This document shows, in pieces, positions 34,959 to 61,970 of a stretch of DNA of 64,000 nt. A model generated the notes under the pieces. That model had not been told where the DNA came from, searched no databases, and saw nothing but the letters and a program-made list of their open reading frames with translations. The stretch is from a virus: the IMG/VR virus record IMGVR_UViG_3300045988_132920; one strand, written 5' to 3'. Numbering within the stretch: the stretch's first letter is position 1; each line of letters starts with the position of its first letter. The position numbers and the translations under genes were made by a program.

Positions 34959-34963
34959 ATTAA

Positions 34964-37286: not shown

Positions 37287-37363
37287 GCAATGTAATGTGT
37301 CGTTAGCTCAGTTTGGTTAGAGCCCTGGATTGTGGTTCCAGTTGCATGGGTTCAAATCCCATA
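37287..37363 (+). tRNA. tRNA-His (anticodon GTG).
   Basis: Acceptor gtgtcgt/acgacac, anticodon stem ctgga/tccag with loop ttGTGgt, T-arm atggg-ttcaaat-cccat, CCA. Confidence 0.8.
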
Positions 37364-37478
37364 CGACACCCCATTTATAGAGTTTAGGTAAGGTCTACAT
37401 CACCTTCGGTAGCGAGTCGACACTACTGAAAATGGCAGTCGGGAGTGAGGCAACGACTAAAATATTTCTCACGAACAT

Positions 37479-37553
37479 GGTCTTGTAGCTCAGCGGTAGA
37501 GCACTCGGCTGATAACCGAGAGGTCGAAGGGTCAGCACCTTCCAAGACCACCA
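37479..37553 (+). tRNA. tRNA-Ile (anticodon GAT).
   Basis: Acceptor ggtcttg/caagacc, D-arm gctcagcggtagagc, anticodon stem ctcgg/ccgag with loop ctGATaa, CCA. Non-canonical T-loop gtcagca. Confidence 0.75.
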
Positions 37554-37596
37554 TTATTACTATGAAATTGTATATTCTAACTCATGGAGGGACAAA

Positions 37597-38250
37597 ATGA
37601 CACTTGACCATACTGTGAGACTTTTTAATACTACAATCAATGAGGCTTTTGCTGAGCTTAAAGAGCATCATGTACAGCCCGATTGTATTATTACCCATAT
37701 AAACAACAACTGCTTTGGTGGTGAAATTACCATTGAAAAAATGAGAGACCTTGGCGAAAGATTCAAAGATGTTCTTATTGGTCAAGGTCATATTTATTTG
37801 TATATTGATGATATTCAAGACTTAGGTATAGTCATGGTAGGCATGCAAGAAGCTGGGTTAACGTTTAAGAATATCCTAACAATACCTTACACAGATAAGA
37901 TAGTACAAGCTGGATGTAACACACGTAAATACTTTGATGGTGCTGTAAAACGAGTGTTATACTTTACTAAGTATGAAGGACATTTCTTAAACCATACAAA
38001 ACTATTTATTAAAATAAAGGCTACTAGTATGCACCCTGCTGTGTGGAATTGGTTTAAGGGTACAATCTCAGACTCTTACAAAAATATCATGCAAATATCT
38101 ACTCAGCACGCAGATACAATACTTGACCCATTTATGTTAACTGATGCCATTGGTAAAGCAACTGTTGAGGCAGACAGACACTACATCGGAATCAACCCTG
38201 GAAAAAATTTTAACGATATAAAGCATAGCTTAGAAATGTTACAAGTTTAA
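37597..38250 (+). CDS. Hypothetical protein, 217 aa.
   Basis: RBS (ggagggacaaaATG) after tRNA-Ile. Confidence 0.6.
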   Translation: MTLDHTVRLFNTTINEAFAELKEHHVQPDCIITHINNNCFGGEITIEKMRDLGERFKDVLIGQGHIYLYIDDIQDLGIVMVGMQEAGLTFKNILTIPYTDKIVQAGCNTRKYFDGAVKRVLYFTKYEGHFLNHTKLFIKIKATSMHPAVWNWFKGTISDSYKNIMQISTQHADTILDPFMLTDAIGKATVEADRHYIGINPGKNFNDIKHSLEMLQV

Positions 38251-38548
38251 GGGGTTGACAAATAAATTATCTTATGTTATTATATTTATATAAGGCAAAC
38301 GTCAGGCTAAGTAATCTACAGAACGGTCTGGTGGCAGATATAATTGCCAAGAGCCTCACTATACCGTTGCCGAGCGGTTCTTACATATGGTGAGACAACT
38401 CAGGAGATTGAGACCTCGTGTAAGAAGGTAGCTATTATAGCAAAAAAAAACATCAACTCCACGTTGTAGATAACCTCGCATAAGGGAACGAAAGACCTTG
38501 TTCAACATGCAGCTGACCAGTGAACAGCTTACCAAACACTGGACGTAG

Positions 38549-38622
38549 CGGAGTGGAGCAGTAGTAGCTCGCCAGTCTCATAAGCTGGAGGTCGTGGGTG
38601 CAACTCCCACCTCTCGCAACCA
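38549..38622 (+). ncRNA. tRNA-like element with a CAT anticodon loop but imperfect acceptor stem (possible third CAT tRNA or pseudo-tRNA).
   Basis: Anticodon stem ccagt/gctgg with loop ctCATaa, T-arm gtggg-tgcaact-cccac. Acceptor pairing is poor and the 3' end reads ...aacca. A roughly 250-nt ORF-free leader and a promoter lie upstream; a terminator follows. Confidence 0.4.
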
Positions 38623-38676: not shown

Positions 38677-40503
38677 ATGAAACAAACAAGACATCTAATA
38701 AACTCATTTACTAACAACATTAATGATATACCTATTAATCAAATTGAACTTATTAAGGTAAATAAGTCAGTAGTTGGGTATAATGGCGACCAATTAACTA
38801 TTGACACAGAACTCAGTACTTTTGATAAGGATGCGTTGTATTATGATAATAGTGCTTTGTTTGTGTTTGTATCATCATTTACAGACTTAAATGATATTTC
38901 TAGCATTATTAGGGATTATTATGCTGATGTGTACAAAGGGTTATCTGGACGTGTAGAGGCTTATGTTAACTACAATAATAACTGGTATGAGCTAGTTATT
39001 TTATTAAACGTTTCTGTAGTTACTGTACACATTAACGGAATTGTAGATTCCCCTAGTGAGGAAGCAGATTCTTTGTATTACTGTGTTGAATCTAATTTAT
39101 ACCGATTAGACAACAAAGACATCATTATTGGTACAGCTCTTACACAAAAGTCATTGCAATATGGTGGAATGGCTAAGTCGTTTTATTTCAAAAATGGTCA
39201 ATGGATTGAAATAAGAGTTCAGATAGCACCTGATGAAGCCGAGATGTCATATACTGTAAGTGATAACATTGAGGAAGATATTGTCGTAGGTGGCATCTAT
39301 TACCTAATAAAAGGGCAGCTGTATAGGTGTGTACATGGTAACATTTGGATAGACTGTAATCCTATGACAGCAGGGGAGAAAGCTAACAATGCAACCAACT
39401 CTAATGCTATTGTTAATGGTAGCATGCAGCCTATATATAACAGAGACATAGTATATTTAGAATGCTACCCGTATGATACTAAAACTCATACAAGACTTGT
39501 TAAAAATAGATATGGTGAAACTGTTGAAGAACAGTATACACTAAACAAAGTTCTTTTTGATACCTTTGATTTAAGTACAATTACTTCAGCTGATGCACAC
39601 GAGCATTGTATGCTTATAAGAGATAAGTGGTATTATTATGCTCCAGCTAAAGAATTATTTAAGTGGACTCCTAATGGAGAACTACCTGAACTTGTACAAC
39701 CTTGGGTACTTACTGGTAAAAATACTCAACGTATTTTTTACTCTCCAGATAAAGGTGGTATTACACTTAATGACAGTAAGGACAATGCGTATATTGAAGT
39801 ACCAAGAGGTAAAAACTTAACACTTACTACAGAAGCCCTATCAAGTACAACTCCATTGTGGTTATATCATCCTGCAAGAGAAAGTTGGGTTGAGTATAAA
39901 GTAATTGTTACAGAGTCAAACCCAAACATGCTTTGGGCTAATAACTCTTTAAATGATGAGCTGATACAGGCTCTGGTTGAGCAAGATGCTTTTGTTTTAA
40001 ATATATCAAATGACCTTGGTTGGGAGCTGTACAAGTTTGATTACACAAAATTTTTTGTTAAATATGATTTTGTGGGCAAGTACGGAGACGAAGATGGCTA
40101 TGGTATTTATGAACGTCAGTTTCAGTTTTATAGAAACATGATGCACAGATATTATGATATTAACAAAATCAATAGAATTGACCATGCAGATATTACATTT
40201 ATTCACCAACATCCATTAATTGCAGTAGATGTTCCAGAGAACGGAAAAATTTATTATGATTCTGTTAAGGACACTTACTATATCACACAAATAGTTCCAC
40301 CAGAAGATGTTATTACATCAGAGATTGAGTCAGTAGTTAATGATGGTATCATAGATGACTTGGGGAATAACATACCTGTTATTGACAAGCAGTATTACAA
40401 CAAAGAAGGTCTCCCATTAGTATTTGATGGAGAAACCTACTTTGAATTTTTGGAATTAAAAACAGATAATGAGTTTATTCAGCACAGAATAATGTACCTG
40501 TAG
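38677..40503 (+). CDS. Hypothetical large protein, 608 aa.
   Basis: Long ORF after terminator 38630-38660. No motif recognised. Confidence 0.65.
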   Translation: MKQTRHLINSFTNNINDIPINQIELIKVNKSVVGYNGDQLTIDTELSTFDKDALYYDNSALFVFVSSFTDLNDISSIIRDYYADVYKGLSGRVEAYVNYNNNWYELVILLNVSVVTVHINGIVDSPSEEADSLYYCVESNLYRLDNKDIIIGTALTQKSLQYGGMAKSFYFKNGQWIEIRVQIAPDEAEMSYTVSDNIEEDIVVGGIYYLIKGQLYRCVHGNIWIDCNPMTAGEKANNATNSNAIVNGSMQPIYNRDIVYLECYPYDTKTHTRLVKNRYGETVEEQYTLNKVLFDTFDLSTITSADAHEHCMLIRDKWYYYAPAKELFKWTPNGELPELVQPWVLTGKNTQRIFYSPDKGGITLNDSKDNAYIEVPRGKNLTLTTEALSSTTPLWLYHPARESWVEYKVIVTESNPNMLWANNSLNDELIQALVEQDAFVLNISNDLGWELYKFDYTKFFVKYDFVGKYGDEDGYGIYERQFQFYRNMMHRYYDINKINRIDHADITFIHQHPLIAVDVPENGKIYYDSVKDTYYITQIVPPEDVITSEIESVVNDGIIDDLGNNIPVIDKQYYNKEGLPLVFDGETYFEFLELKTDNEFIQHRIMYL

Positions 40504-41023
40504 ATGAATTTAGTGTAAATTTTTCAATTACTGGTAATGACCCGTCCATCATTCTGTCAACTACAATAAATGATGCTTTTTCAAATCCCATGACTTTATT
40601 AGTATATTCAATAACTGGTTGAATCTCATAGTCTGAGCATGAAAATAGGTCTATTGATATATAGTTTTTCTCGGTCCAAGAATGCAGTGTGCAGTGACTT
40701 TCGACCCATATAGCAATAGCTGAGACACCACTACCTAGTGTGTTTCGTTGGTTAATGTGTGTCCTAAATGAACTAAGTATTTCAGAGTCATTACACTTAC
40801 CTTCTGCATCAAGTTTTTCTAATAACCTTACAGCCTCACCAGAGAATGGAAATGACATAGCTATTGGTGGGAATACTAAGGTCATGTTAGTTATTTTAGT
40901 TACTTCTTCTAAGTAATCAGATAAAAATTCTCGACTAGACATGTCTTTAACTTTATCTGACGAAAAGACTCCATCTATTATTAAGTGTCGTCCTGCGTAG
41001 TTTGGTGTATCAATAAAATTCAC
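40475..41023 (-). CDS. speH: S-adenosylmethionine decarboxylase proenzyme (pyruvoyl-dependent, SpeH/SpeD class I-like).
   Basis: Motif VESHCTLHSWTE matches the self-cleavage / pyruvoyl site E-S-H...H-T-W-P-E of bacterial class I AdoMetDC. Length is about 180 aa. Confidence 0.65.
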   Translation of the reverse strand: MNFIDTPNYAGRHLIIDGVFSSDKVKDMSSREFLSDYLEEVTKITNMTLVFPPIAMSFPFSGEAVRLLEKLDAEGKCNDSEILSSFRTHINQRNTLGSGVSAIAIWVESHCTLHSWTEKNYISIDLFSCSDYEIQPVIEYTNKVMGFEKASFIVVDRMMDGSLPVIEKFTLNSSTGTLFCAE

Positions 41024-46880: not shown

Positions 46881-48065
46881 ATGAAAGCAATTAAAACAAA
46901 TAAGAATTCAATTTTGTCATGGGCAAAAGAGATTGAAGAACCAGCATTAAAACAATTAATTAATGCTGCTGAGCACCCTTGTATTAACATGCCTGTAGCT
47001 GTGTGTCCAGATGTACATGCAGGATTTGGTGTAACTATTGGCTGTGTACTTCCAGTAACAGATGCACTAATCCCAAATGCTGTAGGTGTGGATATTGGAT
47101 GCTCAATGTCAGCAGCTAAAACAAATATTCGTGTAGAAGATGTATCAACAGAACTATTAAAGAAGATTGTTGGTGGAGCTAAAGGTTACCCAGGAGGTAT
47201 TAGAGCTAATATCCCTGTAGGACAAAGCCACCACAAAACAAAACAAGACCACCATATCTTTGCTAACAGAGATATGTGGAATGACACAATAGTTTGTGCA
47301 CAAGAACTTGAATCAGCACAATACCAGTTAGGAACAATGGGTGGTGGAAATCACTTTATTGAACTACAAGCTGGAGATGATGGTTTCTTGTATTACATGA
47401 TTCACTCAGGCTCACGTAACTTAGGGTACAAAGTGGGGCAGTATTATGATAAACTTGCTAAAGACTTGTGCAGCAAGTACAAGCAAGATAGAGTAGTACA
47501 AGATGACTTAGCTTTCTTACCAAGAGGTACAAAAGAGTTTGATATGTACTTTAAAGAAATGAATTTGTGCTTGCAGTTTGCCAAAGCAAACCATGAACGT
47601 ATGCAAGAAATCTTAGATGGAATTTTGAGACATTATATTCCTGAAATTGCATTTACTAAACGTTGGTATACAAGGCACAACTATGCAGCTATTGAAAACC
47701 ATAAAGGTGTAAACTACTTTATACATAGGAAGGGTGCTATAAGAGCACGTGTGGGTGATGAACAAATTATCCCTGGCTCACAAGGTACAGCTTCTTATAT
47801 AGTAGAAGGCTTAGGTAATGTGGATTCATATTGCTCAGCTTCACATGGTTCAGGTAGAGTAATGTCAAGAAGGCAGGCAACAGCTTCTTTAAATCTTGCA
47901 GAAGAACAAAAGAAGATGGAAGGTATTGTTCATAACATGACTACTAACAAGCAGTTAGATGAAGCACCTTCAGCTTATAAAGACATTGAAGACGTATTAA
48001 AGCAAGAAGCAGACTTAGTGAATAAAATTGTTAAGTTAAAGCCTATTGCTGTAGTGAAGGAGTAA
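46881..48065 (+). CDS. rtcB: RtcB RNA 3'-phosphate / 2',3'-cyclic-phosphate ligase.
   Basis: Near-canonical RtcB blocks: CPDVHAGFG, AVGVDIGCSM, GGNHFIE, HSGSRNLG, HRKGA, IIPGSQG, SASHGSGRVMSR and SAYKDIEDV. These run collinear with E. coli RtcB motifs over the full length. Promoter ttgaca 46819-46824, tattat 46842-46847. Confidence 0.9.
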   Translation: MKAIKTNKNSILSWAKEIEEPALKQLINAAEHPCINMPVAVCPDVHAGFGVTIGCVLPVTDALIPNAVGVDIGCSMSAAKTNIRVEDVSTELLKKIVGGAKGYPGGIRANIPVGQSHHKTKQDHHIFANRDMWNDTIVCAQELESAQYQLGTMGGGNHFIELQAGDDGFLYYMIHSGSRNLGYKVGQYYDKLAKDLCSKYKQDRVVQDDLAFLPRGTKEFDMYFKEMNLCLQFAKANHERMQEILDGILRHYIPEIAFTKRWYTRHNYAAIENHKGVNYFIHRKGAIRARVGDEQIIPGSQGTASYIVEGLGNVDSYCSASHGSGRVMSRRQATASLNLAEEQKKMEGIVHNMTTNKQLDEAPSAYKDIEDVLKQEADLVNKIVKLKPIAVVKE

Positions 48066-48520: not shown

Positions 48521-49396
48521 GTGCCAATAGAAATAGAAGAAGTATGTTTCACAGAAAAAGTAGAGCTAGTAAAAGACACAGAACTAGCAGAAGCATATAA
48601 AAGAGAGGAAGATATTAACTCTTACTCTTTACAACATGCTTTTACACAAATACAAGAATCAAGACTGCAAAATGCAAGGAAATATATGTTTCTAAGTATT
48701 ACAGGTGAAGATGGCTTAATGTACTATGCAATAAATGCTAATACAAGAGTAATGATTAAAACAATAGTTAAAGCTCTTGGTAAAGTTCCAATGATAGGAT
48801 TAGCATGTAATAGGAGTCTTGAAGATATATTAATTACAAGTATGTCTAATGAAGTATTTGACCTTGATAAAGCAATGCTTGCTATACCAAGTAAATCTAT
48901 ACACGTGCAGATACATTTAAAAAGTAGCTCAGCTTCAGACAGAATTAAATGGTTCCACAGCAACGTGCAAGAACTTGAACAAAGTTTGAATGTACATATA
49001 CTAGACTATGAGTTTAAGGGCTTAACTGACCATGCTCTGGAACTAATGTATGGAAACTACATGTATGAAGACATAGTAACGTCAGTAGAACACAGAATAA
49101 GCAGTGATATTGCAACTAAGTGGAAATGGATTTCATCTCATATGACATTCCATTACTATATGGCATCACTTGCAAGGTCTTTTCAACTAGGTATAGGTGA
49201 TAACTTAACTGTTACTACAACTGGCTGGCTTGTAACAGACTCAAATGCACAAGATAGAATACCACTATATTCATGGGGTGCACAGCACTATAATTCATCA
49301 GGTGACACATATAATGACCTGGTTAATAAGTATTCAGCTACTGCATTCATAGGTAAGCCTTCAGATAAGTATATACCTTTCAGATTCAAAGATTAA
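48521..49396 (+). CDS. Hypothetical protein, 291 aa (GTG start).
   Basis: RBS agagga 8 nt upstream of GTG 48521. Confidence 0.55.
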   Translation: MPIEIEEVCFTEKVELVKDTELAEAYKREEDINSYSLQHAFTQIQESRLQNARKYMFLSITGEDGLMYYAINANTRVMIKTIVKALGKVPMIGLACNRSLEDILITSMSNEVFDLDKAMLAIPSKSIHVQIHLKSSSASDRIKWFHSNVQELEQSLNVHILDYEFKGLTDHALELMYGNYMYEDIVTSVEHRISSDIATKWKWISSHMTFHYYMASLARSFQLGIGDNLTVTTTGWLVTDSNAQDRIPLYSWGAQHYNSSGDTYNDLVNKYSATAFIGKPSDKYIPFRFKD

Positions 49397-49440
49397 TATA
49401 TCATACCTAAATTCCATCCAATTTAAGAGTAATATCTAAT

Positions 49441-50289
49441 TTATACTACACCATCCTCCTCGGTGTAGTTTTTCTTATGTACCCTATAATATCCACCATA
49501 CCTTGAAACTGTAATGTCTTTGTTTTTCATAAACCCCTTCCTAATGCTATTAATTATTACTTTTGTAGAGGCTAAACTAATATTCATTCTAGCAGAGAAG
49601 TGCCTGTATATTTCATATATCTTTCTACCTTCAAACATATCAATAACATTGTCTAATGTTAGAAAATGACTATGTAAAAACTGCAAATGAGTTTTTGGAA
49701 TATAAGGGTGGTATTGTAAATTACCTTCAGCTATTGGATAACTCTTTAATGTGTAGTAGTCTAACCACGTACGAAGTGTTAGATTCCTCCTGTTATCTTT
49801 ACGAATCTTGCTAGGTACATACTCCTTAAATACTTCTTTTATCTGTTCCACAGTTAATCCAGATATTTTTGAGAGCTGTGGAATAGTTAATCCACATCTA
49901 TGCGTTAATAAAATGTCATATATAGTTTTATACAACTTACTAATAGGAGTGTCGCCTGTCATAATCTCATTAATAGCTTGTTTTATATCATCAACTGTAC
50001 AACCAAACCACTCTGTACCCTGTAGTCTATAAAATCCTTTTTGTTGTAGTACTTTATGTATATCTCTATCCGTTATATTAAAATCATTATCATAACTTGG
50101 TAAAATAAATAGTACATTGAATTGATTACCTTGTGTACACGGGTACCCTTGCAGCTGAGCTTGAATACGTGCTTCAACTGACCCTGTTGTTTGACCAATT
50201 TTAACTAGCCCTTTTCCAGAAGTAGTACTTGTTTGCCATGCTTGATTTCGACTGTGCTCTGTGTCATAGACGTAGATAGTTTGTGACAT
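49441..50289 (-). CDS. T5orf172 / GIY-YIG-like domain protein with a C-terminal DNA-binding region; putative homing-endonuclease-like or regulatory protein.
   Basis: The N-terminus IYVYDTEHSRN...GLVKIGQTTGSVEARIQ...GTEWFGCTVDDI matches the T5orf172 domain signature (YIY...KIGxT...R...EWF). It is a lone minus-strand gene among plus-strand genes, next to direct repeats. Confidence 0.65.
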   Translation of the reverse strand: MSQTIYVYDTEHSRNQAWQTSTTSGKGLVKIGQTTGSVEARIQAQLQGYPCTQGNQFNVLFILPSYDNDFNITDRDIHKVLQQKGFYRLQGTEWFGCTVDDIKQAINEIMTGDTPISKLYKTIYDILLTHRCGLTIPQLSKISGLTVEQIKEVFKEYVPSKIRKDNRRNLTLRTWLDYYTLKSYPIAEGNLQYHPYIPKTHLQFLHSHFLTLDNVIDMFEGRKIYEIYRHFSARMNISLASTKVIINSIRKGFMKNKDITVSRYGGYYRVHKKNYTEEDGVV

Positions 50290-50372
50290 TAATAAAATCT
50301 CCTTTTGTCAGAGAATCTAATAATATGGTAGCTGTATAAGCTGATAAGAGTAGGCTGTTGGTGGTTGCAAAT

Positions 50373-50463
50373 TGGTAAGAACAGAGTTATACAGGTTAAA
50401 AAGGTAGAGTAGATTAATAGTTGTAGAGGTTGGTAAGAACAGAGTTATACAGGTTAAAAAGGT
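50373..50463. repeat. Two perfect 34-bp direct repeats (ttggtaagaacagagttatacaggttaaaaaggt) separated by 23 bp.
   Basis: Copies at 50373-50406 and 50430-50463 read directly. They lie in the upstream region of the minus-strand T5orf172-like gene, in an ORF-free stretch. Confidence 0.85.
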
Positions 50464-50711
50464 GCTAACGGCTGAAACCCGCTGTGTGACTGGGTTATAG
50501 AAAGGTCGAAGTTTTCAGAAAATCCTAAAATTTCTGTGAGCCTCTAAAGACACACCCGACCACACCTGCTTTTCACCCTTCTATCGCCCTTTTTTCACTT
50601 CAAAAAATTGTTACAATAATTTACATAAAACATGCTTGCATGCTATTGACATTTAACTTTTTTAGTGTAATAATAGTATTATAAAGTTAAGCAAACGAAA
50701 GGGAAACGACC

Positions 50712-51185
50712 ATGACAACTTATGAAACACTTTACAACGCAATCGCAAAAGCGAACGAAAAACAAGGACTAAACGCAATGGACATCGCAAGGGGTACGAA
50801 GGCAACAGGCTCAAAAAATGGCATTAAGTACCTAAACATCGGGGGCGTAGTAGTTGCTTACTCTAGCGACAAGCAAGCATTACAAGCTAACAGAAACAGG
50901 GCATGCTCAATCGCTAGACAACAAACGGCAAGCATGAGAAACGGCATGTCTTATGGAGTACCTAACTGTGTAAGCCAAGTATATAGCGACTATTCAGCAT
51001 TTGTAGGAATTGAAAAAATCGGATTTGCAAGCCAAGCATACAAACTAGCCTACATCAGAAAATACTTGCAAGGTGAATTTTACTTCTTAATCGGTCAAGG
51101 CATAAGCAATAACTTCCACGAGATAATAAACGGAGATTACAACATAGTAAACAGTTTAGAAGATAAAAGGGATATATGGGGCTAA
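50712..51185 (+). CDS. Early-region hypothetical protein, 157 aa.
   Basis: Conserved leader aaacgaaagggaaacgaccATG. Promoter ttgaca 50646-50651. Confidence 0.6.
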   Translation: MTTYETLYNAIAKANEKQGLNAMDIARGTKATGSKNGIKYLNIGGVVVAYSSDKQALQANRNRACSIARQQTASMRNGMSYGVPNCVSQVYSDYSAFVGIEKIGFASQAYKLAYIRKYLQGEFYFLIGQGISNNFHEIINGDYNIVNSLEDKRDIWG

Positions 51186-51250: not shown

Positions 51251-51616
51251 ATGAAACAAGCACAAGTAAACTACTCAACAATTACAGAAACTATCATTGA
51301 TGATGTAAAGCAAGCTATTATTGACATACAGGCAGGTGAAGATGATTGTTTTATGAAGTTCTTAAACAATGGCATGGTTGGTTATAGCCTTGCATGTTCA
51401 GGTGGTTATTCAATCATTTACGATTGTACAAATGACAGGCTAGTAGTAGCATGGTTGTTAAAGGTTAGAGGGTCAAACATTCATGATTGTATTGACGGGT
51501 CATGGGGTCAAGGTTATTATTTCGATAATAATGGGGGTAGTTACCTTAATGAACGATATGACATTGACAAGGTTGTAGATTTATTTGTCCGTAAAGCACT
51601 AGGGATTAGGGATTAA
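51251..51616 (+). CDS. Early-region hypothetical protein, 121 aa.
   Basis: RBS aaggagaattaaaaATG. Terminator hairpins 51611-51676 downstream. Confidence 0.6.
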   Translation: MKQAQVNYSTITETIIDDVKQAIIDIQAGEDDCFMKFLNNGMVGYSLACSGGYSIIYDCTNDRLVVAWLLKVRGSNIHDCIDGSWGQGYYFDNNGGSYLNERYDIDKVVDLFVRKALGIRD

Positions 51617-51954
51617 GCCTAATCCCTTTAGGGATTTAAGATTAAAGACTGATTGATGTTTCAATCAGTCTTTTAGTATTGATATAAAATATTCAATCTG
51701 GGGCTACTAGCAGGCTATTTAAGACAGGTTACAGTTAATGAATGATAGTTTATACAGTTTGATAGGTTGGAGGGCTTAACGGGGCTTGTAGCTCGTGTAA
51801 GATTGGCATGCTAAAATTGCATACTATTGTAACACAAGAATTTTATTTGTCAAGGGTTTATTAAGTTTTGTAACAAATTAAATACAGGGGTTGACATTTA
51901 AAATTTTTAGTGCTATTATATAAGAGTAGCAGATAAACGAAAGGGAATTAAAAA

Positions 51955-52254
51955 ATGTTAGAACACACTTTGAACATCGGACTTAATGACATGGTAACAC
52001 GCAAGCAAGAAATTGAAACCGACAGAGCTATTGAAATTATCGGTGCAGTGTTAGGGGATTGCACAGTAAAACAAGGTGCAACAGGCTTTTATGCTCACGA
52101 AGACGGCTCAAAAGTAGTTGAAAAATCACTTGAAGTAGTTGTATATGGTGGAAGACAAAAGCAAGTAATCGCTAAAGTTAGGGAGCTAAAAGTTCTTTTA
52201 AATCAAGAGAGCATAGTTTATAATTGCGAGCAGTCAAAAGCAAAATTTATCTAG
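51955..52254 (+). CDS. Early-region hypothetical protein, 99 aa.
   Basis: Cassette promoter (ttgaca 51891-51896, tattat 51914-51919) and leader aaacgaaagggaattaaaaaATG. Confidence 0.6.
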   Translation: MLEHTLNIGLNDMVTRKQEIETDRAIEIIGAVLGDCTVKQGATGFYAHEDGSKVVEKSLEVVVYGGRQKQVIAKVRELKVLLNQESIVYNCEQSKAKFI

Positions 52255-52330
52255 TTTAATGGGGGGATAACTCTCCCCCCCTATAAACTAATCTTAATTA
52301 AGTATGTAGTAAGTAGTAAAGGATAATAAA

Positions 52331-52576
52331 ATGAGTAAAGATGAGAGAATTATTTTAATGTTGTTTGTAGTAGCAGGATTTATTGGCATGTTGTTCTTAC
52401 CTATGTTAGGTATGCTTTATATATGGGACGAGATAGCACGCATGGCAGATAAGGCATGGCAAGTATGCGTTTTATATAAATGTTTATCAATCCTATGGTG
52501 CATGGCTACTTATGCAATTCAGTTTGGCATGGGCAAGATGATATTCAAGCATATTATTTGCAAGCAACCATTTTAA
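52331..52576 (+). CDS. Early-region small membrane protein, 81 aa.
   Basis: RBS aaaggataataaaATG. Two hydrophobic helices. Terminator 52598-52628. Confidence 0.55.
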   Translation: MSKDERIILMLFVVAGFIGMLFLPMLGMLYIWDEIARMADKAWQVCVLYKCLSILWCMATYAIQFGMGKMIFKHIICKQPF

Positions 52577-52597
52577 AATGATTTTAAAATAAGGATT

Positions 52598-52628
52598 TGA
52601 GCCATGACTTTACGGAGTCATGGCTTTT
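52598..52628 (+). terminator. Rho-independent terminator.
   Basis: agccatgact-ttacgg-agtcatggct then tttcg. Confidence 0.65.
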
Positions 52629-52746
52629 CGATTGGTTGTAGTATAGTGTGAGGTGCAAGCCGTGAAACGGCTATAACGCAGTTATAGCTTGTGTTTCAGG
52701 CATATAATAGATATAGGTTAAGTTTTGTAACATACTGAAAATTTTT

Positions 52747-52774
52747 ATTGACAAAATTTGATTTTGTGATACAA
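52747..52774 (+). promoter_or_regulatory. Family-B promoter (TTGACA-N16-tgaTACAATagtat), plus strand.
   Basis: ttgaca 52747-52752, tacaat 52769-52774. Further plus-strand members at 55726, 56695, 57383, 59085, 60967 and 61008. Confidence 0.6.
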
Positions 52775-52879
52775 TAGTATACACTATTATGGATTGTAAC
52801 AATATGTTAATATACTATTGACATATAAGTTTATTAGTGATATAATCATCATGTGGTACATAAATGAAAGGAAAGAATT

Positions 52880-53299
52880 ATGGATTTTAAACAAGGTATA
52901 TGCCCGTTATGTGGTAGTGAAAATTTGGATTACGGGGTATTACAACCTGATGACGATTGTATTTATTACCCGTGTGAATGTGGGGATTGTGGAGCTACTT
53001 TTAAGGAATATTACAGCCTTGATTTTTCAGGTCAAGAAAATATATCTGCTGGAGATACTGGGAATGTAGTTGAAAGATACACACTTGAAAGACAGGTTAA
53101 AGAGGGATTTTTCGCTGATTTATCATTATATAAAAAGATTGCTACCTTTGAAACTTACGAGGAAGCATGGGAAGCATACGAAAAGCAAACAGTAACAGGG
53201 GATTATGCTATCGTTAGAGCTAACTATAAAGTGGAAAATGATGAACTCACAGAGATAGTACAGACAAGGAAAGCTGAAACACTTGTAAACCATAAATAA
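52880..53299 (+). CDS. Early-region zinc-ribbon protein, 139 aa.
   Basis: CPLCGSEN...CECGDCGA four-Cys motif at the N-terminus. Tandem promoters at 52747 and 52817. Terminator 53301-53337. Confidence 0.6.
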   Translation: MDFKQGICPLCGSENLDYGVLQPDDDCIYYPCECGDCGATFKEYYSLDFSGQENISAGDTGNVVERYTLERQVKEGFFADLSLYKKIATFETYEEAWEAYEKQTVTGDYAIVRANYKVENDELTEIVQTRKAETLVNHK

Positions 53300-53300
53300 A

Positions 53301-53337
53301 GGGATAAGCATGCCAGTAGTTGGCATGCTTATTTTTA
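53301..53337. terminator. Rho-independent terminator, hairpin symmetric with flanking A/T runs.
   Basis: gggataagcatgcca-gtagt-tggcatgcttatttttaac. Confidence 0.7.
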
Positions 53338-53345
53338 ACATGCGT

Positions 53346-53378
53346 ATACTATTGTAACACAAAAAACTCATTTGTCAA
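53346..53378 (-). promoter_or_regulatory. Family-B promoter on the minus strand, antisense and directly downstream of terminator 53301-53337.
   Basis: The minus strand reads ttgacaaatgagttttttgtgttacaatagtat. The same arrangement recurs at 51823, 54136, 54866, 55787, 58088 and 59134. Confidence 0.5.
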
Positions 53379-53414
53379 GTGTTTATTAAGAAGTGTAACA
53401 AATTAAATAAAGGG

Positions 53415-53443
53415 GTTGACATATAAGTTTATTAGTTGTATAA
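53415..53443 (+). promoter_or_regulatory. Family-A cassette promoter (gggTTGACAt-N17-TATAAT with TGn extended -10).
   Basis: ttgaca 53415-53420, tataat 53438-53443. Equivalent copies at 51891, 52817, 54213, 54939, 55859, 56774, 57446, 58165, 59207, 61719, 63097 and 63949. Confidence 0.65.
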
Positions 53444-53474
53444 TATTCATGTAAATAAACGAAAGGAATTAAAC

Positions 53475-54095
53475 ATGAAAGTAAATGACTTTATTATGGC
53501 AGTACTAGACCATTCAAAAACAGACCCAAGTATATTAAACAAGGAATTGCAGTTATATAATTCAGCCGAACGCAAATCCTATGCAACAGACTCAATTCCA
53601 ACTTTTGTTGACCTATCAGATGACAAGTATCTTGATATAGTGTTTAACAATCAAGGGAACATTGCAGATATAAGACAGGAACTGGAGGGGAAAGCCTTAA
53701 ATCCTGTGCAAGTATTAAATGGGTGGAGTGGCTTATACACTATTGTCAAGAATGCACTTGCTAAAATTGAAACACCTAATGAAACAGAGATGTGCTTAAT
53801 TCAACAATACTACTATAATAAGCTCATTGAGAATTTACAAGGTATAAAAGCCATTGACAAATCAGTTGAACTTGTTGAGGATGAGGGGCTTGAGTTTATG
53901 CGACACATTGATGTTGAAATTAACTTCAACAACGGTGGTGGGCATGCAGGAATACGAGCTTTTATTACAATAACAAAGGATAACAAGAACGAAATTCAAG
54001 CCTATGTGCAAGATGAGTTTTACGGAACTATTCCACAAGAGGATAATTATTTTGAAGATATAAACATTAACAACCTTATCGCTTATCTACAATAA
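53475..54095 (+). CDS. Early-region hypothetical protein, about 206 aa.
   Basis: Start reassigned to ATG 53475 behind leader aaacgaaaggaattaaacATG. Cassette promoter ttgaca 53415-53420, tataat 53438-53443. Terminator 54097-54134. Confidence 0.6.
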   Translation: MKVNDFIMAVLDHSKTDPSILNKELQLYNSAERKSYATDSIPTFVDLSDDKYLDIVFNNQGNIADIRQELEGKALNPVQVLNGWSGLYTIVKNALAKIETPNETEMCLIQQYYYNKLIENLQGIKAIDKSVELVEDEGLEFMRHIDVEINFNNGGGHAGIRAFITITKDNKNEIQAYVQDEFYGTIPQEDNYFEDININNLIAYLQ

Positions 54096-54096
54096 A

Positions 54097-54134
54097 GGGA
54101 ACAGGCATGCACACTAGCATGCCTGTTCTTTTGT
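54097..54134 (+). terminator. Rho-independent terminator.
   Basis: gggaacaggcatgc-acact-agcatgcctgttcttttg. Confidence 0.7.
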
Positions 54135-54272
54135 TTAATGAAATACTATTGTACCACAAAAAACTCATTTGTCAAGTGTTTGTTAAGAAATGTAAATTTA
54201 TAAAACAATGTATTGACATTTAAGTTTATTAGTGTTATTATATAAGAGTAGATAAACGAAAGGAACACAGAT

Positions 54273-54461
54273 ATGGCAACAAATTTTGAAATGTTTTTAG
54301 ACACAGTAAACGGATTAAAGTACTCACAAGGCTTTTATAGCAGACTCGCAAATCAAATTGCTGAAATGTCAGAAGAAGACTTAAACAGAGCTAAAGAAGA
54401 AATCAATGCACTACCTCAATTCAATGACCAACTTGATGTAATATTGTGGTTAGAACAATAG
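54273..54461 (+). CDS. Early-region small protein, 62 aa.
   Basis: Cassette promoter (ttgaca 54213-54218) and leader gataaacgaaaggaacacagatATG. Confidence 0.55.
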   Translation: MATNFEMFLDTVNGLKYSQGFYSRLANQIAEMSEEDLNRAKEEINALPQFNDQLDVILWLEQ

Positions 54462-54472
54462 GAGAGTTACAG

Positions 54473-54805
54473 ATGTTAAACGACTTAGACTTAATGGTGA
54501 AACTATTTGACAATAAGTTAAATGAATATCATACAGACAGCCTTGTGAAATTCCGCAAGGCAGTTGAAGACAAAGTTCTTGATACAGAAACAAAGCAAGC
54601 CTTAATGCAGTTAAGCACAGAAGACCTTGCAAATCTCATGCGTATTGCAGAAAATGCACACATTGACGAGATGAACGGCAGAGAAACGCAATGGGATACA
54701 GTAGCAGAGCATGCCAAGTCATCAATAGCACAGTTTGCACTTAACAACCTATCGGTTGAAGAATTGCAAGAATGGACTGATATATGTAATGCAATGGCAT
54801 GCTAA
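54473..54805 (+). CDS. Early-region hypothetical protein, about 110 aa.
   Basis: Start reassigned to ATG 54473 after RBS taggagag. Terminator 54834-54860. Confidence 0.55.
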   Translation: MLNDLDLMVKLFDNKLNEYHTDSLVKFRKAVEDKVLDTETKQALMQLSTEDLANLMRIAENAHIDEMNGRETQWDTVAEHAKSSIAQFALNNLSVEELQEWTDICNAMAC

Positions 54806-55001
54806 AACAGAGTTAATTTATACGGTGATTACTAGCACACATTTGTGTGCTTTTTCTTTAGTAGTGAAATACTATTGTAACATAAAAAACTCATTTGTCA
54901 AGTGTTTGTTAAGCAATGTAAATTTATTAAACATACTATTGACATTAAAGTTTTTTAGTTGTATAATGATTATGTGATAGATAAACGAAAGGGAACAAGA
55001 C

Positions 55002-55622
55002 ATGGAAAGACCAGTAAAGATTGAAATTAACAAGGACGAAGAAAAAAGGATTTACATAAATGATGACATCTTCATTGATATATCAAACAATGGGGGCAGA
55101 GAGTATGACATCTATGTATTTGACCAAATGAAATGTGTAGCAACACAGAGCATGGATATAATAGGCATAAGGGAAGACCAATACACCTATGACAAACGAA
55201 CAGTAAAAGAACTCAACAGAGAGCATATACACAGGGCAGAAGTAACAAACATATTAAGCATACTTGATAAGCACACTAAATCCTTACAGGATAAGTTTGC
55301 TAAACTATGTGCAACTAAAAGACCTTTAACTGCTTCTGAAATAATGTTTACTGAAAAAGAAGTTCAAGAACTATTTAAAGGTGAGGTTACATACATTGAG
55401 CTATGCCCTAACACTGATGACAGTATAAGTGTTTTTGTAGTTTTCGAGGGTAAGGTAGGTGTATTTTATGAAATGAATAAAATACACCTACCTTACAAGG
55501 GTTTTCAACATAAACGAACTATTGAGTACTACACAGTTTATAATTCCTTTAGTGATGAAACTACCCTTGAACTAAACGAAAGAACATTGCGAGCTATTGA
55601 CAGAGATGAGTGCCGACTGTAA
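55002..55622 (+). CDS. Early-region hypothetical protein, 206 aa.
   Basis: Cassette promoter (ttgaca 54939-54944, tataat 54962-54967) and leader aaacgaaagggaacaagacATG. Hairpin 55610-55633 at the stop. Confidence 0.6.
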   Translation: MERPVKIEINKDEEKRIYINDDIFIDISNNGGREYDIYVFDQMKCVATQSMDIIGIREDQYTYDKRTVKELNREHIHRAEVTNILSILDKHTKSLQDKFAKLCATKRPLTASEIMFTEKEVQELFKGEVTYIELCPNTDDSISVFVVFEGKVGVFYEMNKIHLPYKGFQHKRTIEYYTVYNSFSDETTLELNERTLRAIDRDECRL

Positions 55623-55919
55623 CCAGTCGGCACAACCCCACTTCACCCCTATAACCCCCATTTTACAAGGGTTAGAGGGGTATTTTAGGTAGGTATTAAG
55701 TTTTGTAACAATCTGAAAATTTTTATTGACAAATAACTTTTTTGTGGTACAATAGTATTCACCATGCCCGTGATTGAGCATGAAAATATACTATTGTAAC
55801 ACAGGTTAGATTGATTGTCAAGTACATGTTAAGAATTGTAACAATTAAATACATGGGGTTGACATAAGAAATCTTTAGTTGTATAATAATTATGTGATAC
55901 AAAACGAAAGGGAATACAA

Positions 55920-56114
55920 ATGAGAAAAGAAGATTTACAGGAACTCCTTAACAAATGTGGTGAGATTGAGCTTGATTTAACCTTATCACAGGAAGATGAT
56001 GAAATTATTTTAACAATAGGGTCAGAAAATTCATCTGGAGAGGAATACATCATAAATAACACAGATGACATTAAAAACATTATTGAAGATTACATAGCAG
56101 ATTTATATGAATAA
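55920..56114 (+). CDS. Early-region small acidic protein, 64 aa.
   Basis: Cassette promoter (ttgaca 55859-55864, tataat 55882-55887) and leader aaaacgaaagggaatacaaATG. Confidence 0.55.
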   Translation: MRKEDLQELLNKCGEIELDLTLSQEDDEIILTIGSENSSGEEYIINNTDDIKNIIEDYIADLYE

Positions 56115-56132
56115 ACGAAAGGGAACATGAAC

Positions 56133-56684
56133 ATGAAACAACACACAATTTGGAAAGATACTTCAATGTGGACTGTAAAGAACATTGACGAGGCAAAAGC
56201 AAGTGCTAGAGCAGAACTAATAGACAACGGATTTGAAAATCCAACAGACGAGCAAATAAGCGAATATATCGAACAGGATAACGAATTTGAATATCAAGCA
56301 ACATACAACAAGTTCAAACAAGTACAAACTAACGGCAAAATTGTTCTTGTTGCAGATAATGCAACATGGAGAGGTAGGAGAGTAGGCTTAAAATATTTAG
56401 GACACAATTTAGGTAATATTTTACAGTCATTCTTCAACGGCTACCCTGCTTTTACTTATGATAGGTTTAACATCAGAGGTGAGGAATGCCACCATGACCA
56501 ACGATTTTGCAGCGATAGCAGACCTAATCAGTATTTATTCAGAGAGCTTAAGGAAGAATACAGTGATATGGACGATTATAGGCTATGTGAGTTGCTTGTG
56601 CAAGATAATGAGATTAACAAACGCAATTTAGCAAAATATACAAAATCATTAAGACCATATTTAAAGGAAGTATGGGGGATTTAA
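56133..56684 (+). CDS. Early-region hypothetical protein, about 183 aa.
   Basis: Leader aaacgaaagggaacatgaacATG. The second ATG is chosen for its RBS spacing. Confidence 0.55.
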   Translation: MKQHTIWKDTSMWTVKNIDEAKASARAELIDNGFENPTDEQISEYIEQDNEFEYQATYNKFKQVQTNGKIVLVADNATWRGRRVGLKYLGHNLGNILQSFFNGYPAFTYDRFNIRGEECHHDQRFCSDSRPNQYLFRELKEEYSDMDDYRLCELLVQDNEINKRNLAKYTKSLRPYLKEVWGI

Positions 56685-56901
56685 TCCCTCATACTTGACA
56701 AATAATTATTTTATGATACAATAGTATGCTTGTCATGTAATTGTAAAGATATGTTACAACAATAAATAAGTATTTGACATTTTAATTTGTTAGTGCTATC
56801 ATATACATGTATTAAGGATAAAGAAAAGCACTTGACAAATAATTACTTTTCACCTATACTTAATCATGTGATACATAAGACAAAAGAAAGGGAACAACAT
56901 C

Positions 56902-57309
56902 ATGGCAATCAAGGTAAAAGACGAAGTAAGAAAAGGCATAAGCTACACTAAAAGGGAAATTGTAGACCTAGAAGAACTTATTGCTGAATGTGATGAAGCA
57001 ATAGGCTACATGTCAGAAACTACTTTTACAAGACACCGTAACGCACACAGAATTAACAAGGTAATTGAGCAGAAGAAGTCAGCACAACAAGAGCTATCAC
57101 TTCAAAAGTTAAGCCTTAAAAACTATGCTGAATTTTACGGTCTTAAAAAGTCAGATGTTGAAGCAGTTGCACCAGCGACAGATGAGCAACTGGAAAAGGA
57201 CTGGCAAGCAGACTTAAGGGAAGCAAATAAACCATATAACCCTAACGACCTAATAAAACTTATGGAACAGTTTGACAGGGAACACCCTCAACAATTTGAA
57301 ATAGTATAA
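56902..57309 (+). CDS. Early-region hypothetical protein, 135 aa.
   Basis: Three promoters upstream (56695, 56774, 56833). RBS aaagaaagggaacaacatcATG. Confidence 0.6.
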   Translation: MAIKVKDEVRKGISYTKREIVDLEELIAECDEAIGYMSETTFTRHRNAHRINKVIEQKKSAQQELSLQKLSLKNYAEFYGLKKSDVEAVAPATDEQLEKDWQADLREANKPYNPNDLIKLMEQFDREHPQQFEIV

Positions 57310-57501
57310 CTCTTGTTCGGAAACATAAATTAGGCACAGGTTCACAGAGCTTGTGCCTATTGCCTTTTAGATGTAAGTATTGACAAATAATTATTTTATG
57401 GTACAATAGTATCTTTTGCATGCCTGTATAATATCGAGGGTTGACAAACAACTTTTTTAGTGTTATAATATACATGTGATACCAAACGAAAGGGAACATA
57501 T

Positions 57502-57693
57502 ATGACTGTAAGAATACTAAACACATGCCCGATTTGTGGCTGTTCAAAATTCAAGTATCAAGATGATGGATTTATGTGCCTTGATTGTGGTGAGTTCTCA
57601 TACATAGAGGACATGACCTCAACAGCTTTAGAAGTGCATGAGTTATCTGAACATGATTTGATTGACAGGTCATTAGTAAAGGGGGAACAATAA
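57502..57693 (+). CDS. Early-region zinc-ribbon mini-protein, 63 aa.
   Basis: CPICGCSKF...CLDCGEF. Leader aaacgaaagggaacatatATG. Confidence 0.55.
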   Translation: MTVRILNTCPICGCSKFKYQDDGFMCLDCGEFSYIEDMTSTALEVHELSEHDLIDRSLVKGEQ

Positions 57694-58073
57694 TGAGTAT
57701 AAAAGAACAATTACAAATAACGATTGTACAAAAGATGATTGTACGAAGTCCTTTTGCAAAAGGTAACTGTAAGGAATACATACTTGATTTAACATACAAT
57801 AATAAGACAATGCGTTATAACTTTTATGATAGTGTGTATAATTATGAGAACAACCAAGAGCTTAATAAGTTTGAAACACTTTATGCAATCCTTACAGACC
57901 GTAGAGCATACAGATATTCAAGAAGTGTAGAGGACTTTGCAAAAGAGTTTGGTTACACAGATGAAGAAAAGGCAAGGAAAGTATATAGTGCTTGTAAGAA
58001 GATAGCACTTGACCTTGAAAGACTATTCACAGAGGAAGAACTAGAACAGCTTGAGCAAGAAGTAGAAGTGTAG
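57693..58073 (+). CDS. Early-region hypothetical protein, 126 aa.
   Basis: TAATG overlap with the upstream gene. Terminator 58069-58090. Confidence 0.55.
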   Translation: MSIKEQLQITIVQKMIVRSPFAKGNCKEYILDLTYNNKTMRYNFYDSVYNYENNQELNKFETLYAILTDRRAYRYSRSVEDFAKEFGYTDEEKARKVYSACKKIALDLERLFTEEELEQLEQEVEV

Positions 58074-58090
58074 GGAATTCCCTACACTTT
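58069..58090 (+). terminator. Rho-independent terminator.
   Basis: Palindrome tgtagggaattccctaca followed by tttt. Confidence 0.6.
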
Positions 58091-58229
58091 TGAAACATAC
58101 TATTGTAACACAAAAAACTCATTTGTCAAGAGTATGTTAAGAAATATTAAATGTTGAAACAAGGGGTTGACAGGTAAGTTTATTAGTGCTATAATAAGGG
58201 AGTGATAGATAACGAAAGGGAATAAACAA

Positions 58230-58895
58230 ATGAAAAACTTAAACAACATGACAACAGAGGAAATTCAAGACACTATTTGGGAAGTACTTGAAAGTAAATC
58301 AGGTGAGGAAGTCTTAAGAGCTTTTACTAACTGGCATGGAACTCAACTTCTTACAGGGGAATTCCTAGAAGCATTGTCAGATGACGGAATGACAGATGAG
58401 GAATACGGATATTTTGATGATGAAGAAGATGAAGAAATCGAAGAAGACGATGATGACAGTGATGAGGACACTAAAGAATTCCTTGATACTTTAACTGATG
58501 ATGAGCTTGAAGAAGTACATTCAAAAGTAGTTAAGTTATATGAAACACTTGCAAAGTTAGCTACTGATAGTTCAGCAAAGGAAACACAACACGGGCAAGT
58601 AGACCATGTAAGATGTGCTTTTAAAGCTCTTGTTAGCTTGTACAATGGTGAATACACAGATATGCTTAGTGAAAACCACTACATGGACATAAGACTAAAC
58701 ATAGCACCTATACATGATGTGCTAATTACATTAACTGCACTACCAAATAAAAGACCTTATATAAATGTTAATCAATGGGTGGACTACAAAGACGGAACTG
58801 CTATATACTTAGGTGAAGTTGAAAGGCAATGCAAGTTAAGACTTGGTAAAGAATTCCCTGATAAAATAGGTTATTGGGGAATAGGGCAGAACTAA
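58230..58895 (+). CDS. Early-region protein with an extended acidic D/E tract, 221 aa.
   Basis: Cassette promoter plus leader gataacgaaagggaataaacaaATG. Tract DEEYGYFDDEEDEEIEEDDDDSDEDTKEF. Confidence 0.6.
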   Translation: MKNLNNMTTEEIQDTIWEVLESKSGEEVLRAFTNWHGTQLLTGEFLEALSDDGMTDEEYGYFDDEEDEEIEEDDDDSDEDTKEFLDTLTDDELEEVHSKVVKLYETLAKLATDSSAKETQHGQVDHVRCAFKALVSLYNGEYTDMLSENHYMDIRLNIAPIHDVLITLTALPNKRPYINVNQWVDYKDGTAIYLGEVERQCKLRLGKEFPDKIGYWGIGQN

Positions 58896-59266
58896 ATTCC
58901 CTATCGTATCACAAAAGAAGCTACTCTTGCAGATGATTGCAAGGGTAGCTTTAGTATGTATGGTAGCCTACACCCAACCACTCGCACGCCGCTAAATGGC
59001 TATAACCCTTGCTACACAATGGTTTGAGATAGATTGATTGAGGGTGTTAAGTTTTGTGAAATTCTGAAAATTTTTACTTGACATTTTTGTGATTTATGAT
59101 ACAATAGTATACCTCACGCAGTAAAATACTATTGTATCACATGACACACATTTTGTCAACCCTTACATTGTAAATTTTTATTAACTTTATTAAATCGTAG
59201 GGGTTGACATTAAACTTTTTTAGTGCTATAATAAGGGAGTGATAGATAACGAAAGGGAACAAACAA

Positions 59267-60702: not shown

Positions 60703-60749
60703 AGATTTAATATCTAGTGTTTTGTTCGTGGTTTGTTCATAACAACCTA

Positions 60750-60777
60750 ACCCTCTTAATGAGGGTTTTTCTTTTGT
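60750..60777 (+). terminator. Rho-independent terminator.
   Basis: aaccctc-ttaat-gagggtt then tttcttttg. Confidence 0.65.
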
Positions 60778-61772
60778 AAGAACACAGGAAGCCCCAGTTG
60801 ATTATCCTAAAATCATGATGTGTTGACACATTTAGATTTACATAAAATCGGGTAGGGCTACAATGCAGTAATAGCTTGAAAATTGATTTTTGATGTTTAG
60901 AAAATCCCTAATAGGACTTTTTCAAAATGGGTATGGTAGAAAATTGCTTCAAGTACAGGGTTGACAAAATGATTGTTATGTGGTACAATAGTATGCTACA
61001 CAAGGGATTGACATAATTTGGCTCGTGTGGTACAATAGTATATTTTGCATGGGCATGCCTGTAAACCCTCTCGTAGTCGGTATGCGACAGATTGGGTGAA
61101 TGAGCATTTTGAGCCTACTAGGACACCATTAAAAGCCATTATTGGTCATCAGATGTGTTGTGTGTTGATTGAGCATGTCGACCTCGTCAGAGCCGTTGCA
61201 ATGGCTTTAGGTTTGATAAACAGGGAGAATAGTTGAGCAGAGAGAGTTTGAGAGTGCCGACCCGACCGAAACTACTACAACTACTGGGCGATAGCGAGTG
61301 AGGTTGAGCAGAACGGTGCGTGGGGCAGACGGGGCAAGGCTGTGTTTTAGACACACTCACATTCCCCAAAATTCCCAAACATTTCCCGACCCAAACGCAC
61401 CTCACACCCTCAAACAAAACTTCAAACCCTGTTTCAACTTCCCACAAATTATATTATCTAATGAAGCGGAAACGCAGACACCCCAACACATACCACCGAC
61501 ACAGACGGCTGAAACCCAGACAAAATAGGCGTTCATGGCACTTTCGCACTGTAAACAGTGTTTTATATGCCTAAAAAGCCCTCGTAGTCTACACGACAGC
61601 CTATTCCTAACATCTATTTCATACACTCTCACATATACAAGCCTAAAAACTGGCTATACTGTGTTCTTTTGTAATCCTTTAATACACATACTATACAGAC
61701 CCTCTCATGTAGTAGGGTTGACAAATTACTTTTTTAGTGTTATCATATAAGAGTAAACGAAAGAGGTAACAA

Positions 61773-61970
61773 ATGTATGGTAAAGACATTAACGGTATTG
61801 ACATCAAACTAAATGACATAGTACAAAGTATCAAAAAGAATACTGACTGGAATGACCAGTTAAACAATGACCTTATGACACAAGTTGTAGACAACGAATT
61901 TCAAATTGACAATGACTACATCTATGAAGTAATAGGGAACACTATTGACAATCCCAAACTTACATACTAA
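61773..61970 (+). CDS. Early-region small protein, 65 aa.
   Basis: Cassette promoter (gggttgacaaattacttttttagtgttatcat) and leader gtaaacgaaagaggtaacaaATG. Confidence 0.5.
   Translation: MYGKDINGIDIKLNDIVQSIKKNTDWNDQLNNDLMTQVVDNEFQIDNDYIYEVIGNTIDNPKLTY

Follow-up and report, generated by a model that had tools for sequence, protein, structure and literature searches.

Direct repeats of 34 nucleotides beside a strain-variable T5orf172 cassette in an uncultured gut jumbo phage

A repeat pair upstream of a T5orf172 gene

We analyzed a 64,000-nucleotide stretch of DNA from an uncultured gut jumbo phage (IMG/VR record IMGVR_UViG_3300045988_132920; hereafter the window), in which a minus-strand gene encoding a T5orf172 (GIY-YIG-like) domain is preceded by a pair of direct repeats. 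The 34-nt sequence TTGGTAAGAACAGAGTTATACAGGTTAAAAAGGT is present twice, with 58 nt from start to start and a spacer of 24 nt, and the two units lie 83–174 nt upstream of the T5orf172 ATG (Table 1). A preliminary description of this DNA had reported two identical 34-mers; the perfect pair exists, but the first copy begins one nucleotide before the position given there (50373–50406). The 422-bp region that holds the repeats (50290–50711) was also described as free of open reading frames (ORFs), and it contains none of at least 20 amino acids save two spurious minus-strand ones that overlap the start of the next gene. The spacer and the 24 nt preceding copy 1 both begin with GAGTAG and are elsewhere only about 50% alike.

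The pair is the sole perfect noncoding local repeat of such size across the 64 kb, and shuffled versions of the window gave no match to the 34-mer. A search of both strands of the window that tolerated 12 mismatches found no third copy, and neither did one extended to 13 mismatches or one by k-mers; a partial match to the unit (13/15 at 60773) is at chance level, being one of ten such matches. Neither the 34-mer nor its 31-nt core has a match in the viral and genome contig collections. Many copies scattered across the genome had been proposed as the sign of a generic dispersed repeat; with no further copies in the window or in the scanned collections, a dispersed repeat is ruled out. Independent assemblies from several samples and assemblers read through the repeats at 99.95–100% identity, and the repeats are therefore not an assembly artefact. 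A structured RNA was considered and rejected, since Rfam returned nothing at the gathering threshold and only chance-level matches at E up to 10, and both strands fold less stably than shuffled sequences (z +1.05 and +1.49).

The T5orf172 domain assigned to the minus-strand gene is borne out by a match of its product to the Pfam family T5orf172 (PF10544) above threshold (E 3.4e-9; 37.6 bits, gathering cutoff 20), and the product also matches MUG113 (PF13455; 36.6 bits, cutoff 22.3). As noted previously, this is the lone reversed gene of its stretch: no other gene from about 41 to 64 kb is on the minus strand, and the nearest one that is lies at 40475–41023. It is an intergenic ORF of its own, outside any intron or intein and antisense to its neighbours, and it sits between a terminator-like hairpin (49445–49475) and the leader of an array of early genes. 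There are no T5orf172 paralogues in the window, and searches of viral, metagenome and genome contigs gave no relatives of the T5orf172 protein or of the 291-amino-acid protein encoded in its flank. One distant full-length homologue, P0009 (locus L034), has 32% identity.

Three natural alleles of the locus

The locus occurs in three forms. Allele A, which is that of the window and of many samples, has the T5orf172 gene and two repeats. Allele A' (ERR13961219; locus L011) is 96.75% identical to the window in nucleotide sequence. It also has the gene, at 97% amino acid identity, together with one full unit; of the second unit, just the final 13 nt are present. This allele was read from two contigs that meet in the spacer with a 13-nt overlap, giving a joint reading of copy 1, AGAGTAGATTAGTAGTTGTAGAGG, TTAAAAAGGT and GCTAACGG. 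A single event separates the window from A': the window has 24 extra nucleotides, which can be placed as the first 24 nt of copy 2 (50430–50453) or equivalently as 50427–50450, and which are bounded by AGGTT at 50427 and 50451. It came about in one of two ways: copy 1 converted the junction 13-mer across short homologies, or slippage deleted sequence from A'. Because this one indel explains the perfect identity of the two copies, that identity needs no selection on the pair. The indel also shows that the pair is not conserved as an array, A' having a single full unit and the 13-mer.

Allele B (L012–L014, from three Logan runs) has neither the T5orf172 gene nor the 34-mer units. Its flanks are 95.2% identical to those of the window on the left (9.6 kb without gaps) and 92.1% identical on the right, and an unrelated segment of 153 bp stands in place of a 959-bp cassette of the window. 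The BLAST breakpoints fall at window 49491/L012 9588 and window 50451/L012 9742. On the left, homology continues through the hairpin at 49445–49475, so that the last ~16 T5orf172 codons lie in sequence common with allele B. On the right, homology resumes inside copy 2, and the last 13 nt of this copy, AGGTTAAAAAGGT, belong to the backbone, for which allele B reads AGGTTAAAAGGT. Presence of the gene is thus polymorphic among near-identical phages with conserved flanks, and the repeats go with the gene. What had been put forward as an origin or iteron candidate becomes a natural three-allele polymorphism of a T5orf172 cassette, with breakpoints located to the base.

Homology between the segments specific to alleles A and B was considered and rejected (alignment score 37, against a shuffle mean of 24.8, standard deviation 4.5, maximum 53). 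The allele B region (L012 9575–9741) contains GTAAG/CTTAC motifs in both orientations, mostly as TGTAAG/CTTACA (11 in 200 bp, where about 0.4 are expected). The 153-bp segment also shows a loose 52–56-bp periodicity.

Divergence between alleles A and A' is uneven along the upstream region (Table 1). Copy 1 is identical in the two alleles and the adjacent stretch is hypervariable, a difference with a Fisher p of 0.005. At the synonymous rate (12%) the chance of finding no change in 34 nt is 0.012; at the genome-wide divergence of 3.25% the same result is unremarkable (P about 0.33). Copy 1 may be functional, for which this single pairwise comparison is moderate evidence. The T5orf172 gene itself has a synonymous divergence (pS) of 0.12 between the window and A', and the ratio of nonsynonymous to synonymous divergence (pN/pS) is 0.10; the gene thus encodes a working protein under purifying selection. 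To the left of the cassette, the 3' half of the 291-amino-acid flank gene (49000–49250) is about 13% divergent between the window and A', and the 150 bp next to the cassette (49300–49449) are identical. This mosaic is the pattern that recombination tracts ending at the nuclease gene would give.

Table 1. Features of the T5orf172 locus in the window and nucleotide differences between alleles A and A'
Feature	Position	Strand	Differences, A vs A'	Remarks
T5orf172 (GIY-YIG-like) gene	49441–50289	−		282 amino acids; nuclease-like domain at amino acids 4–109
Terminator-like hairpin	49445–49475	+		ACTACACC-9 nt-GGTGTAGT, then T run
Allele-specific cassette	49492–50450			959 bp: gene, 5' flank, copy 1, spacer, first 21 nt of copy 2
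5' untranslated region and ribosome binding site (RBS, AAAGGAG) of T5orf172 gene	50290–50321	−	0/32 nt	no differences, window vs L011
Hypervariable stretch, RBS to copy 1	50322–50371		10/50 nt	divergence overall 3.25%
Repeat copy 1 (R1)	50372–50405	+	0/34 nt	21-nt cassette-specific part X and 13-nt part Y, AGGTTAAAAAGGT
Spacer	50406–50429	+	1/17 nt in the visible part (50406–50422)	24 nt; 1 change in A'
Repeat copy 2 (R2)	50430–50463	+		last 13 nt (50451–50463) are backbone common with allele B; right junction of cassette
Conserved noncoding block	50464–50600			C-rich, 45% GC vs 35% for the window; in all three alleles
First early-cassette promoter	50646–50711	+		TTGACA-17-AATAAT with TG; leader and RBS (AAACGAAAGGGAA); gene 50712–51185

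A putative binding site for the cassette protein and other explanations

The locus looks like a free-standing T5orf172 endonuclease cassette, which is of a known kind, and it is the three-allele series that makes it informative. On one side of the cassette is the terminator that closes a tRNA/RtcB module, and on the other is the conserved leader of the array of early genes. Two suggestions of the preliminary description, a recombination or homing target and a module junction, are supported by the presence or absence of the 959-bp cassette at this boundary of conserved modules, and by the breakpoint within copy 2. The reading that we favour, and that we consider about equally likely to be right or wrong, is that the repeats are the upstream flank and the right junction of a strain-variable T5orf172 cassette resembling a free-standing homing endonuclease gene (HEG), and that the repeated unit is the putative binding site of the cassette's own product. 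We infer that the unit is bound by the nuclease because copy 1 is invariant beside a variable flank and the gene is under purifying selection, and because the unit lies upstream of the gene, travels with it, and ends in the 13 nt of the cassette-less junction.

Under this proposal the asymmetric 34-nt unit, or at least copy 1, would be the binding site of the cassette's own protein, which might bind as a monomer via a helix-turn-helix-like region at its C-terminus. The unit would be an operator or a homing-site mimic, much as the operator of I-TevI resembles its homing site, and the common 13-mer would be part of both the operator and the target found in genomes without the cassette. If the nuclease makes or attracts breaks at this junction, their repair could have produced copy 2, the indel of 24 nt and the hypervariability nearby. 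The binding, the regulation and the nuclease activity of the T5orf172 protein are all predicted from sequence. The operator array that had been suggested earlier fits only as a single-site hypothesis, with copy 1 conserved.

The C-terminal ~170 amino acids of the T5orf172 protein are an orphan, helix-rich region. A structure model of low confidence (pLDDT 40) has a helix-helix-helix and beta-hairpin pattern here, and the region possibly comprises two helix-turn-helix or winged-helix modules. Searches of PDB and NCBIfam for a DNA-binding domain in the protein gave no matches.

Several observations count against the proposed binding site. The only Pfam match to the C-terminal region, HTH_60 at E 0.12, does not reach the threshold. 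The protein was modelled with a mean pLDDT of 40 and a pTM of 0.23, which is too poor for a fold search. We did not find a conserved promoter for the T5orf172 gene against which an overlap with the operator could be judged. The region upstream of the distant homologue in L034 has only a 13-bp tandem pair and no comparable long repeats. Aligned to allele B, the unit's first 21 nt stay below the shuffle null and have no counterpart, so that likeness to the putative target is limited to 13 nt. Copy 2 is absent from A' and is dispensable, and the conservation of copy 1 is drawn from A against A' alone.

The only minus-strand sigma-70-like match (50347–50320) was rejected as the promoter of the T5orf172 gene, since its -10 element is destroyed in A'. 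The tandem pair in L034 consists of AAGGAGCCCCCTT and AAGGAGCCCCTGT at 5760–5785, about 220 nt upstream of the P0009 gene. That gene is likewise reversed in its neighbourhood, and an HNH endonuclease gene is located 1.9 kb away.

T5orf172 proteins form a GIY-YIG subfamily; their genes in phages are known as free-standing HEGs with modular DNA-binding domains, mostly found at boundaries of genetic exchange, and 87% of those surveyed carry zinc-finger domains (CapR, DUF723 or DUF4397) (PMC10448857). The gene described here resembles the T5orf172 HEGs of phage ICP1 and the seg genes of T4 in having the T5orf172 domain at one terminus and a separate putative DNA-binding region, and in being intergenic, reversed, at a module boundary and variably present between conserved flanks. 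It differs from the ICP1-type HEGs in its orphan helix-rich C-terminus, which has no CapR, DUF723 or DUF4397 zinc finger. A further difference is that the cassette-less allele B is no empty site and carries an unrelated 153-bp motif array.

The GIY-YIG endonuclease I-TevI occupies its long asymmetric site in monomeric form, and also binds, without cutting, an operator upstream of its own ORF that is like its homing site (PMC2988022). The 34-nt unit is similarly a long asymmetric site upstream of an ORF, with 13 nt identical to the endonuclease-less junction. However, I-TevI is encoded in an intron and represses its own transcription from an operator that coincides in part with a defined late promoter, whereas at the present locus no promoter was identified and the site is duplicated in one lineage. 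The T5orf172 nuclease Odn (ICP1 Gp88) cuts only DNA with repeats of about 30 bp, and natural duplication or replacement within these repeats alters cutting (PMC8263062). The window locus is alike in the putative specificity of its protein for a repeated unit of about this length and in the natural variation of the repeat region. However, Odn has a RepA_N-like DNA-binding domain and targets another replicon, a satellite, whereas the window repeats are beside the nuclease's own gene and no Rep-like domain was detected in its product.

The unit may instead be without function, copy 2 being a recent short-homology duplication (or A' having suffered a slippage deletion) in nonfunctional DNA beside a mobile gene, and the invariance of copy 1 a matter of chance. 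We consider such a neutral scar rather unlikely. It would account for a copy number of two, one or zero in close relatives, for the 5-nt direct repeat that bounds the indel, and for a region that is otherwise hypervariable and that allele B does without; the lack of change in copy 1 is also unremarkable at the genome-wide divergence. However, that lack of change is improbable at the local or the synonymous rate (p 0.005–0.012), and the 24-nt stretches before the copies are only about 50% alike where the 34-mers are identical. It is very improbable, in our view, that the repeats serve, independently of the T5orf172 protein, as operators or upstream sites at which a regulator controls the first early promoter or the entire host-takeover array. 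The units are 180–270 bp upstream of a near-consensus early promoter, and because allele B carries a dense motif array at the same place, both alleles might hold regulator sites. However, the repeats come and go with the T5orf172 gene, whereas all alleles keep the promoter; the distance to that promoter is large, and other similar early promoters are without such units. Still less credible is a replication origin at which an initiator recognizes the repeats as iterons; both iterons and an origin had been suggested in the preliminary description. Iterons usually come in series of three or more, and close relatives keep both their number and their sequence. Here there are only two copies, spaced 58 bp apart (~5.5 helical turns), of which one is lost in A' and both are absent from B, in phages that are otherwise collinear. 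Family searches of the adjacent and neighbouring proteins gave no Rep, primase or helicase-loader match, so that no initiator gene is apparent, and the region is GC-richer than average, with no AT-rich unwinding stretch. The GC skew, which had been proposed as a check, shows no switch: it is positive on both sides, and the cumulative skew rises monotonically through the site save for a local dip that is the single reversed gene. These results speak against both iterons and an origin, in spite of direct repeats in an ORF-free noncoding region beside the gene for a likely DNA-binding protein, and of a weak DnaA-box-like TTATACAGG (7/9) in each unit. The ~30-bp repeats recognized by the T5orf172 nuclease in PLE are nevertheless iterons of the PLE origin (PMC8263062).

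The remaining alternative concerns the early array as a whole (~50.45–61.7 kb), which could be a direct terminal repeat collapsed in assembly, with the repeats, the 13-mer and the C-rich block marking or adjoining the place at which the terminase generates the left end of the genome; we regard this as quite improbable. In SPO1- and T5-type phages the terminal redundancy is taken up by arrays of strong host-type promoters, and short-repeat arrays adjoin the terminal repeats of T7-, T5- and SPO1-type phages. The window locus resembles these in being at the edge of a strong early-promoter array that appears over-represented in assemblies. For genes at 50.7–60.7 kb, exact-protein look-ups return 39, 37 and 41 collection blocks, compared with 18 for the T5orf172 gene, 17 for the 291-amino-acid flank gene, 16 for a gene at 63.5 kb and 21 for one at 5 kb. 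In one sample the SPAdes k-mer coverage is 5.29 for the contig spanning 49600–65550 and 3.05 for a contig from the tail-gene region (3–7 kb), a ratio of 1.73 where a doubled core of 11.2 kb would give 1.70. In low-coverage samples the array is found in contigs of 10–20 kb that always span ~50–61.6 kb, other regions being mostly in contigs below 5 kb, and several contig ends cluster at 50398–50477 and 61591–61694. These copy-number hints are indirect and come from assembly statistics. They point to the coverage discontinuity that had been sought around 50.4 kb, as a step at the intergenic region, but the step extends over about 11 kb and has no peak, which suggests a collapsed terminal repeat, or an array common to co-occurring strains, more than an origin. 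The over-representation could equally come from such a shared array, and the contig ends near 50.4 kb may reflect the repeat itself at small k or low coverage. Moreover, the 239-kb contig runs straight through, and the two boundary regions of the array have no significant similarity (z about 2.4), with one common 13-mer and otherwise only promoter matches. In contrast to the arrays of T7-, T5- and SPO1-type phages, close relatives of the window phage carry only half of the repeats or none. As one unit is missing from A' and both from B, the 34-mers are not an essential terminal signal; at most the junction 13-mer and the conserved 45%-GC block could act in cis as one. If the array segment were a terminal repeat, the genome ends and the order of entry at infection would be fixed for a lineage without a cultured relative.

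Returning to the cassette with its own binding site, a more far-reaching version would make the protein a T5orf172 endonuclease with a twin helix-turn-helix-like region and no zinc finger, whose 34-nt operator or homing mimic is at the left edge of a terminally redundant host-takeover array of ~11 kb, the nuclease acting at, or driving, module exchange at the genome end. We consider this version improbable. If true, whole early arrays would be swapped between jumbo-phage strains, and the GTAAG array of allele B would be an alternative state or a target. The 34-mer, the 13-mer junction and the allele B array form a set of substrates for studying recognition by a poorly characterized nuclease family.

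The phage and its early array

The window sequence is found on human-gut metagenome contigs, the longest of which has 239,207 bp, with the locus about 88 kb and about 151 kb from its ends; these contig ends are uninformative. The GenBank phage collection contains no DNA match, and proteins match only at about 30% identity; the phage thus has no cultured relative. The style of its promoters and RBSs suggests a Firmicutes-type host. The window encodes 25 tRNA genes (30159–38618), a CCA-adding enzyme (27028–28392) and the RNA ligase RtcB (46881–48065), as well as a RecD-like helicase and tail-fibre-like genes. The tRNA-centred module at 27028–48065 looks like a tRNA supply and repair kit. The operon on this side is ended by the terminator-like hairpin upstream of the array, which is identical in the window, L011 and L012–L014 and overlaps the last ~9 T5orf172 codons on the opposite strand. 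This hairpin was read directly from the sequence; the hairpin scan missed it, as the loop exceeds 8 nt.

On the other side of the repeats, the conserved noncoding block has no match in metagenome or viral contigs and none in Rfam, and its folding is no more stable than that of shuffled sequence. The first early-cassette promoter, which had been placed on this side, is a near-consensus sigma-70 promoter (50646–50674), and the promoter and leader module recurs at 51891, 54213, 57450, 59213, 61728, 63951 and elsewhere. The last cassette is followed by an ORF-free region of 1.07 kb (60703–61775) with tandem consensus promoters at 60961 and 61008, downstream of which are ~650 nt of C/A-rich noncoding sequence with 45% GC. 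This region may encode a long noncoding RNA or serve as the element that bounds the array on the right. The 13-mer ACGGCTGAAACCC is common to this region (61505) and, at 50468, the conserved block.

Positions 49952–49994 and 51297–51339 are connected by an inverted similarity of 43 nt (79%). It links codons 99–113 of the T5orf172 gene (VDDIKQAINEIMTGD) to codons 16–30 of the second early gene, ORF 51251–51616 (IDDVKQAIIDIQAGE), and this 15-residue similarity may have been left behind when another gene of the T5orf172 type recombined here.

Each cassette junction from 51826 to 59159 has, besides its plus-strand consensus promoter, a minus-strand promoter of the form TTGACA-16-TACAAT, with first hexamers at 51853, 53378, 54175, 54901, 55821, 58129 and 59159. 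Terminator-like hairpins are found about 20 nt downstream of the minus-strand promoters at 53378, 54175 and 58129, and a perfect 13-bp hairpin (51644–51673) is located about 150 nt downstream of the one at 51853. The pairing of minus-strand promoters with hairpins suggests short antisense or insulator transcripts.

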